Below are positions 22,215-23,161 of a stretch of DNA of 38,040 nucleotides, one piece after another. Position 1 is the stretch's first letter. Every line of letters begins with the position of its first letter. Source of the stretch: Escherichia phage Louie; the sequence record PQ850616.1. One strand, given 5' to 3'. Below the pieces are notes generated by a model. It was not told the DNA's origin. It saw nothing but the letters and a program-made list of their open reading frames with translations, and made no database searches. Both the position numbers and the translations under genes were made by a program.

Positions 22215-22697
22215 TTATTTGATAAGAAGTGAAGGTTTCCCAACCTTGAGTTGAGCACCTGGGATATTTATTCCTGCTTTTAGTTGGTGTTTGATTGCCA
22301 GTTTGTCGGCTTTAATTGTCGTTTCAAACTCAACGTATTCAGGAGGAAGGGCGCTTGAGTCGATTATTTCTACAATTTCTGACGGTTTGCGGATTGTTAC
22401 CTGGTGAATACCTGCTCGAATCTTTTTCTTGCCAACCATTTCAAGCGATGACGCTATATATGATTTGATGCTGTCAATCTTATTTTGAATTACTGCGGCT
22501 CGCTCATTCAGCGACTTTGCCTCTTCCTTGAGGCGTTCAGCATAACCAGATTCATTTTTAATGACGGAAAGAAGTTGCTCTATTTTATCGGTAAATTCTC
22601 CTTCCATGCCTTCTATTGTGTCAGCAATCATCTCTGGTTCTAAATCTGAATCCATCAATTTTGCGTATTCATTGGCAATTTCATACAGTTTGCTCAT
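22215..22697 (-). CDS. Hypothetical protein, possibly Siphovirus-Gp157-family (160 aa)
   Basis: Adjacent to recT-type recombinase; helical N-terminus; family assignment from recall only. Confidence 0.45.
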   Translation of the reverse strand: MSKLYEIANEYAKLMDSDLEPEMIADTIEGMEGEFTDKIEQLLSVIKNESGYAERLKEEAKSLNERAAVIQNKIDSIKSYIASSLEMVGKKKIRAGIHQVTIRKPSEIVEIIDSSALPPEYVEFETTIKADKLAIKHQLKAGINIPGAQLKVGKPSLLIK

Positions 22698-23161
22698 TTG
22701 CCATTCCTCTCAGTGGAGATCCCAGAAGAAACCTCAGCAACTATCCTTGCCTCGCAGGCGTCGACAAAGCTACCAAACGACCCCAGATACTCATTCATGA
22801 ATGTGGCTCTCCATTTTCCTCTTTGCTTGTGAAACCCAACTCCAGTAATGCCAGATGTGTTATTTTTCTGTTTTCTCTTGTTCAGAAGATTTATTTGCTG
22901 AGAGACGCACCTAAGGTTTTCTATTCGGTTATCACTCGGGTTTCCATTGATATGGTCTATTACCATCCCTTCTGGAATTTCACCGTGGTGAATTTCCCAT
23001 ACAACCCTGTGCACGTATTCTCTTTTTCCGTTAATGCTTACAATGCAATGGCCAGATTTTGTTTTTCCTCCTGCCTTATCACCAGCCCTCATCCATCGTG
23101 CTGGCTTAATCCGCCAAAAAAGCAATCCATCTTCATAACGAAACAATTCAGACGCTTTCAT
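22694..23161 (-). CDS. HNH homing endonuclease with AP2-like domain (paralogous to 5058..5585)
   Basis: Motifs VIDHINGNPSDNRIENLRCV and SGITGVGF; shared YxDGxLxW…H[RI]xVW…G[ED]IPEGM.IDHING..DNRIENLR with the other AP2-HNH copy. Confidence 0.8.
   Translation of the reverse strand: MKASELFRYEDGLLFWRIKPARWMRAGDKAGGKTKSGHCIVSINGKREYVHRVVWEIHHGEIPEGMVIDHINGNPSDNRIENLRCVSQQINLLNKRKQKNNTSGITGVGFHKQRGKWRATFMNEYLGSFGSFVDACEARIVAEVSSGISTERNGK

Follow-up and report, generated by a model that had tools for sequence, protein, structure and literature searches.

How the nuclease gene lying between recT and a Sipho_Gp157-type gene (hereafter gp157) came to be there, and whether its own product brought it, is the question raised by positions 22,215 to 23,161 of Escherichia phage Louie (PQ850616.1), whose whole stretch of 38,040 nucleotides (nt) is referred to here as the window. 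The position of the gene (22694..23161, minus strand) between these two neighbours had been read from the letters in a preliminary description, and both the coordinates and the Pfam matches of the neighbours (PF03837 and PF05565) confirm it. The results described below indicate that it is probably a free-standing homing endonuclease gene (HEG) of the HNH-AP2 class, mobilised by homing at the recT/gp157 junction, its cleavage activity and its target being predicted.

The insertion and the foreign block around it

The HNH gene is a precise 465-nt insertion located just 5' of the start codon of gp157, in a lambdoid early-left operon. The surrounding 2.6-kb region matches phages HK140, vB_EcoP-611R6, vB_EcoP-683R2, mEpX1, Gally, Kapi1 and Dewey at 96-98% identity, always in two pieces and with about 465 nt missing, and in these HNH-less relatives recT and gp157 overlap directly; a custom global alignment with relatives placed the difference at 22697..23259. 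An uninterrupted recT/gp157 junction was found in 296 of 5426 complete Escherichia coli genomes, and the occupied 563-nt block, at 99.6% identity or more, in four of them, about 99% of the E. coli prophages with a recT-gp157 module being devoid of the HNH gene. This is the presence/absence polymorphism expected of a free-standing HEG.

Both neighbours are intact beside the insert, which is joined to them very tightly. The HNH start codon lies 14 nt within the 3' end of recT, the last four recT codons and the stop being contained in the HNH 5' end, and this overlap is also present in the orthologous loci L013-L016. The TGA stop overlaps the gp157 start as ATGA (4 nt), and a Shine-Dalgarno-like GAGAGG for gp157 is supplied by the HNH 3' end. 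There is no non-coding sequence from which a group I intron could be formed (the neighbours are complete and overlapped by 14 and 4 nt; no Rfam search was made), and an intron-encoded gene of the I-HmuI type is not what is found here, because the open reading frame (ORF) overlaps both complete neighbours. I-HmuI, in contrast, is an HNH nicking homing endonuclease encoded in a group I intron of Bacillus phage SPO1. A scan for promoters and terminators within and adjoining the HNH gene gave nothing above chance.

The sequence around the insert is a mosaic of two origins. Most of recT (24056..23277) is 98.6% identical to HK140 and 76.8% identical to L003, a contig labelled Candidatus Erwinia dacicola, whereas the recT tail (23270..23162) is 67% identical to HK140 and 89.9% identical to L003. 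On the other side, gp157 (22680..22215) returns to 95.7% identity with HK140 and 69.9% with L003. The block in between (23270..22686) is 93.3% identical to L003, and its HNH gene is absent from HK140. This contrast between block and flanks is highly significant against L003 (Fisher, p 1e-24), and the mirror pattern is seen when the recT tail and its flanks are compared with HK140 (Fisher, p 3e-21). Informative sites, in tail and head regions aligned separately, place the crossovers at 23276-23268 in recT and at 22686-22680 in gp157. The exchange changed both gene ends: the RecT C-terminus reads ...KEKIEIRHESV in the window and ...KAKLEVASEQTI in HK140, each followed by the stop, and the head of gp157 has an ATG start codon instead of GTG and a CTG leucine codon instead of CTA. 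Taken together, the alignments show an imported block of about 585 nt (about 23270..22686) composed of about 110 nt of recT tail, the HNH gene and about 12 nt of gp157, which came from a diverged phage, with differences of 23-30% in recT and gp157.

The closest donor-like loci are L003 and L006, an IMG/VR contig, both of which carry a 94%-identical protein in the order recT-HNH-gp157. A single-protein query of genome contigs returned one locus, such a query reaching close relatives only. L003 (NZ_MAYS01000142.1, 40.6 kb) resembles a lambdoid prophage or a phage contig related to enterobacterial phages; Candidatus Erwinia dacicola itself is the olive-fly symbiont.

The predicted nuclease and its home site

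The product matches Pfam HNH_3 (PF13392) over residues 49-92 with 82.5 bits (cut-off 24.8; expect value, E, 1.6e-23), and this core aligns with the DH...N...N residues of I-HmuI, an enzyme whose literature provides their catalytic roles. D69, N82 and N91 do not vary among 66 aligned homologues, and H70 and N78 hardly vary. The AlphaFold2 model based on this alignment is confident (mean predicted local distance difference test score, pLDDT, of 92.4) and comprises an N-terminal beta-hairpin region, an HNH beta-beta-alpha core and a C-terminal part of three strands and one helix. A three-stranded sheet packed on one helix is the AP2 fold, and the family profile matches the solved AP2 domain of WRI1 (E 6e-7, positions 102-154), as well as I-HmuI (PDB 1U3E; E 2e-8, positions 23-101). 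By analogy with the N-terminus of I-HmuI, residues 1-48 probably contact DNA; at its other end the I-HmuI structure (1U3E) reportedly has a helix-turn-helix region instead of AP2. The gene had been described beforehand as an AP2-HNH endonuclease, which named both domain types correctly and inverted their order, HNH preceding AP2. A search of NCBIfam with this protein gave no family, and in PADLOC it was matched by generic 'homing endonuclease' ('HEase') models alone (E 1e-7), not by models that would make it a component of a defence system.

The lineage is strikingly faithful to its site. Every homologue of 51-100% identity whose neighbours could be read lies at a junction between a recombinase gene and gp157. 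In addition to L003 and L006, these include P0002 (79% identity), where a cut-off upstream ORF, the HNH gene and gp157 follow each other with the same 14-nt overlap; P0004 (76%), where recT and HNH are followed by a Dam methylase gene inserted before gp157; P0005, a Leclercia prophage (75%), and P0009 (51%), both with the order recT-HNH-gp157; and Pantoea phage PdC23 (52%), in which the upstream gene codes for an Erf-family recombinase and the ATGA overlap is conserved. P0010, at 48% identity, is located elsewhere. In the metagenomic orthologous locus L016, the Dam-family methyltransferase gene between HNH and gp157 lies at 4524..5024, so the junction downstream of the HEG can take further insertions. 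As part of the same explanation, this HNH lineage is probably a specialist of one kind of boundary, that between gp157 and the gene of a single-strand-annealing recombinase (recT or, in a single relative, erf). As far as could be found, this junction has not been described earlier in the literature as the home site of an HEG lineage.

The orthologues are all full-length ORFs of 155 residues, and the ratio of nonsynonymous to synonymous substitution rates (dN/dS) against the window is 0.17 for L003, 0.19 for L006 and 0.09 for L016, so the protein is maintained and is not decaying; by this measure the reading frame is under purifying selection. The features expected of homing, namely the same site in diverged backgrounds, a higher conservation than that of the flanks and co-conversion of flanking sequence, are all found in this element. 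The coordinates of these features are collected in Table 1.

Table 1. Features of the HNH-AP2 locus and of the related gene in the window
Feature	Coordinates	Strand	Remarks
Putative free-standing HNH-AP2 (HNN-AP2 type) homing-endonuclease gene	22694..23161	(-)	155 aa; ATG start, TGA stop
N-terminal beta-hairpin region (aa 1-48), with YxDGxLxW	23018..23161	(-)	
HNH_3 catalytic core (aa 49-92), D69-H70...N78...N82...N91 intact	22886..23017	(-)	Pfam HNH_3
C-terminal AP2-like, predicted DNA-binding domain (aa 103-146), three strands and helix	22724..22855	(-)	
Co-converted foreign 3' tail of recT (last ~36 codons)	23162..23270	(-)	identity contrast versus HK140 and L003
First 12 nt of gp157, included in the foreign block	22686..22697	(-)	window aligned jointly with HK140/683R2 and L003/L006
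recT, single-strand annealing protein, upstream neighbour	23148..24056	(-)	PF03837, E 5e-32
Sipho_Gp157 / 'Mu Gam-like' gene, downstream neighbour	22215..22697	(-)	PF05565, E 5e-38; phrog_253
Other HNH-AP2 gene (copy 1), antisense between scaffold and coat genes	5058..5585	(-)	175 aa; HNH_3, E 4e-22

Homing, passive carriage and domestication

In free-standing HEGs, repair of a break made by the nuclease copies its gene into the broken genome (PMC2790892, PMC2988022), and a comparable sequence of events can be proposed for this locus. When two phages infect the same cell, or a phage enters one that carries a prophage, the enzyme would be made from the early-left transcript, probably via translational coupling to recT. 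Through its AP2 and N-terminal domains it would recognise a long site at or close to the intact recT/gp157 junction of a relative without the HEG, the HNH domain would nick or cut there, and recombinational repair would then copy the HEG and neighbouring donor DNA into the genome that had been broken. The tract of co-conversion is asymmetric, with about 110 nt on the recT side and about 12 nt on the gp157 side, which suggests that the cut site is in the 3' tail of recT. Genomes that carry the HEG would be protected by their diverged recT tail and by the insertion.

Several observations weigh against this reading. The HEG is rare in E. coli, with 4 occupied sites against 296 empty ones, unlike an actively sweeping element, and the occupied sites appear to share one block, only one introgression event being documented there. 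The closest donor-like locus is only 93% identical to the block. As for the DNA-binding domain, its Pfam AP2 (PF00847) score is below threshold (13.0 bits versus 33.3; E 0.13, covering only the first 20 positions of the model); even those homologues that are flagged with AP2 score only about 26 bits in this Pfam model. The domain differs from the AP2/ERF domains of plants and apicomplexans (TEM1, 7ET4; WRI1, 7WQ5; AtERF1, 1GCC/2GCC) in this score and in its fusion to a nuclease, those domains belonging to transcription factors. It also has a deletion of four residues in the AP2 beta2-beta3 hairpin relative to most homologues. The AP2 assignment of the window protein is one made on modelled fold and profile evidence, and not on Pfam.

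The rarity and the single introgression also keep alive the main rival, according to which the gene was a passive passenger. Recombination of the ordinary kind that makes lambdoid genomes mosaic, by homologous or illegitimate exchange at gene boundaries, would then have brought it in, with no contribution from a nuclease that may be inactive or have little specificity. Mosaicism is strong in lambdoid phages, particularly in their early-left operons, where neighbours vary among relatives, and a sharp-edged block could arise by ordinary recombination without any endonuclease. However, what was exchanged is minimal, with the nuclease gene at its centre and short homologous tails on either side, and the same junction is held across flanks that are 23-30% diverged and across two recombinase families, RecT and Erf; both facts make passive carriage less likely. 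The purifying selection and the intact catalytic residues argue, in addition, for a protein that is predicted to be active, and the presence of nuclease genes where genetic exchange begins or ends has been documented as a mark of HEG activity (PMC10448857; also described in PMC2248197). Passive carriage is therefore considered unlikely.

A third possibility is that the nuclease has been domesticated, either as a partner that generates DNA ends for the RecT/gp157 module, as a weapon against competing lambdoid genomes (marker exclusion) or as a modulator of host defence. The 14-nt and 4-nt overlaps with the neighbours in every orthologous locus and the purifying selection on the gene would fit such a role, as would the lack of any recognisable exonuclease partner for RecT/gp157 among the ORFs scanned in the early-left operon (20250..25800, minus strand); two reports also mention HEG roles beneficial to the host or to the phage (bioRxiv 10.1101/2025.09.07.674715, PMC13096335). 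Against it, the roughly 99% of E. coli modules that lack the gene indicate that the module works without HNH, PADLOC offers nothing beyond its generic models, and a competitive role would be compatible with homing and not an alternative to it. Domestication is therefore regarded as very improbable. Two more specific roles were considered and rejected: that of an essential partner nuclease of RecT, on account of the same 99% of module copies without the gene, and that of a cos/terminase cleavage factor like HK97 gp74, since the packaging genes are a long way from the early-left recombination operon in which the gene lies.

A variant that goes further than homing at the junction ties the recombinase/gp157 clade of HNH-AP2 genes functionally to the recombination module, as a self-sufficient 'cut, protect, anneal' homing cassette that would also exclude competing lambdoid markers. 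It is suggested by a junction that is kept over the range of 51% to 100% identity, downstream of genes for RecT- and Erf-type annealing proteins alike. If this were true, the HNH gene would be co-expressed and genetically linked with an annealing protein and a Gam-like end-protection protein that repair its own break (the PHROG label of the gp157-type neighbour is 'Mu Gam-like end protection'). At present the idea is speculative and rather improbable.

Homing at the recT/gp157 junction, the preferred explanation, places the element in a class that is already known. HNN-AP2 or HNH-AP2 genes occur in multiple copies in T1, Rtp, T5, RB16/RB43 and the Xanthomonas phages Xp10/OP1/Xop411 (PMC2248197), and as 'IPA-HNH' in ICP1 (PMC10448857). 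The window gene shares with them the order of domains, with an HNH_3 core (DH...N...N, no Cys dyads) at the N-terminus and AP2 at the C-terminus; a size of about 150-180 residues; its free-standing condition; the existence of several copies per genome; and presence or absence between close relatives (PMC2248197; PMC10448857). In a tblastn search of phage records, its best matches were Pantoea phage PdC23 and Rtp-like and Klebsiella siphophages, at 45-52% identity. It differs from the class in that its lineage resides in temperate lambdoid or P22-like phages at a single recombinase/gp157 site, while the genes of the Xp10 group are dispersed without conserved flanks (PMC2248197), and in its AP2 hairpin, shorter by the four residues mentioned above. 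As in T4 MobE and in the Seg and Mob families of free-standing phage HEGs, an HEG lies here between conserved genes and would be mobilised with its flanks by gene conversion (PMC2790892, PMC2988022), free-standing HNH homing with flank co-conversion having been described before (PMC2790892); the one-sided tract of about 110 nt fits the T4 MobE-type model. Unlike the T4 Mob class, it has an AP2 instead of a zinc-finger type domain (PMC10448857), its host phage is temperate and it is known from sequence alone.

The locus is thus an ordinary, if clean, example of a type of phage element that is well known. It is mildly new as a cleanly documented case in temperate lambdoid phages and for its recombinase/gp157 home site, the element class itself being already known. 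Lambdoid mosaicism is usually credited to ordinary recombination, and this locus would provide a clean, datable example of homing-type gene conversion, one in which the block holds a single gene, the crossovers are mapped, a donor-like lineage is known and empty sites number in the hundreds. A further result is an HNH-AP2 lineage with a probable natural target, the recT/gp157 junction.

The second HNH-AP2 gene and other nuclease genes of the genome

The window contains a related gene at 5058..5585 (copy 1; the gene at the recT/gp157 junction being copy 2), located exactly between the scaffold stop (5057) and the coat gene (5647) and antisense to the late operon. The preliminary description had presented the two as related homing-type endonucleases at unrelated loci, resulting either from active intragenomic spread or from independent acquisitions. 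The relationship stands: both copies belong to phrog_99 (HNH-AP2 family), each is an insertion missing from near-identical genomes, and the shared motifs that had been listed (YxDGxLxW, IPEGMxIDHINGxxxDNRIENLR and SGIxGV) are all present in both. BLASTP aligns them with 41% identity over 135 residues (E 2e-30), so the similarity extends beyond the generic HNH motif, to which it might have been limited, and includes the N-terminal region, the HNH core and the start of AP2. At the DNA level, however, the similarity is confined to 90 nt of the HNH core (73% identity), with none in the flanks.

The phrog membership and the 41% identity are what would favour a recent duplication, with one gene having transposed or homed from the site of the other. 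This level of full-length similarity is, however, that of the family as a whole: of 240 database representatives, about 120 outscore copy 1 in a comparison with copy 2, and about as many outscore copy 2 in a comparison with copy 1, each copy ranking about 121st-127th among the matches of the other. In neighbour-joining trees of 73 taxa (200 bootstraps; distances capped because of a very distant outgroup), the two orthologue groups were monophyletic in 198 and 200 of the 200 replicates and were exclusive sisters in none, the smallest clade with both copies holding at least 18 taxa.

Each copy also has its own history of occupancy. Orthologues of 74-94% identity are found at the respective site in other genomes, such as P0123 (74%) for copy 1, which is at the same scaffold/coat site and in the same orientation. 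Copy 1 is present in Dewey, absent from IME10, APC_JM3.2, CurroJimenez and HZ41, and carried by 20 of the 217 E. coli genomes in which the scaffold/coat site is present. The two distributions are uncoupled, since Dewey has copy 1 without copy 2 and the prophage of E. coli LZYWN_4 has copy 2 without copy 1. The database ranking and the bootstrap result refute recent intragenomic spread, which is left with a negligible probability, the copies not being closest relatives. It is well supported, by site-faithful monophyletic groups, by the more than 120 proteins closer to each copy and by the uncoupled distributions, that they are unrelated by recent descent and were acquired independently. For annotation, the HNH genes of this genome are best regarded as independent mobile insertions, and not as parts of the recombination or head-assembly modules.

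The LZYWN_4 prophage has a different, non-P22 virion module, which includes an 'anti-CBASS Acb1 family' annotation on a large gene of the structural region. A further annotated HNH endonuclease gene is located in it beside kil (L022 15204..15716; NZ_CP046416.1 1477203..1477715), in the same early-left operon as its recT-HNH-gp157 block, which is identical to that of the window.

A third free-standing HNH_3 gene is found in the window in the nin region (32852..33361, plus strand), just upstream of a RusA-like gene. Its product, of 169 residues, belongs to phrog_59 and contains NUMOD4 (E 1e-6), HNH_3 (E 6e-11) and a possible C-terminal helix-turn-helix, an I-HmuI-like architecture with no AP2, and its core has only about 30% identity with those of the other two. 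Relatives match its region in two or three pieces, suggesting that this region is probably variable too. The end of this gene is overlapped by an ORF of 92 residues (33351..33629, plus strand) with CxxC...H...CxxCH motifs and sub-threshold Pfam matches to DUF968 (E 1e-3) and to the putative nuclease YbcO (E 2e-3). Its equivalents in HK140, mEpX2 and HK629 are labelled 'HNH endonuclease' in RefSeq, and it may be a fourth His-Me-finger nuclease of this genome. In the early-left region, an ORF at 24739..25761 codes for a highly charged protein of 340 residues, rich in Glu, Ala, Lys and Arg and with no Pfam match, the equivalent position of phage 683R2 being annotated as 'TolA protein'.
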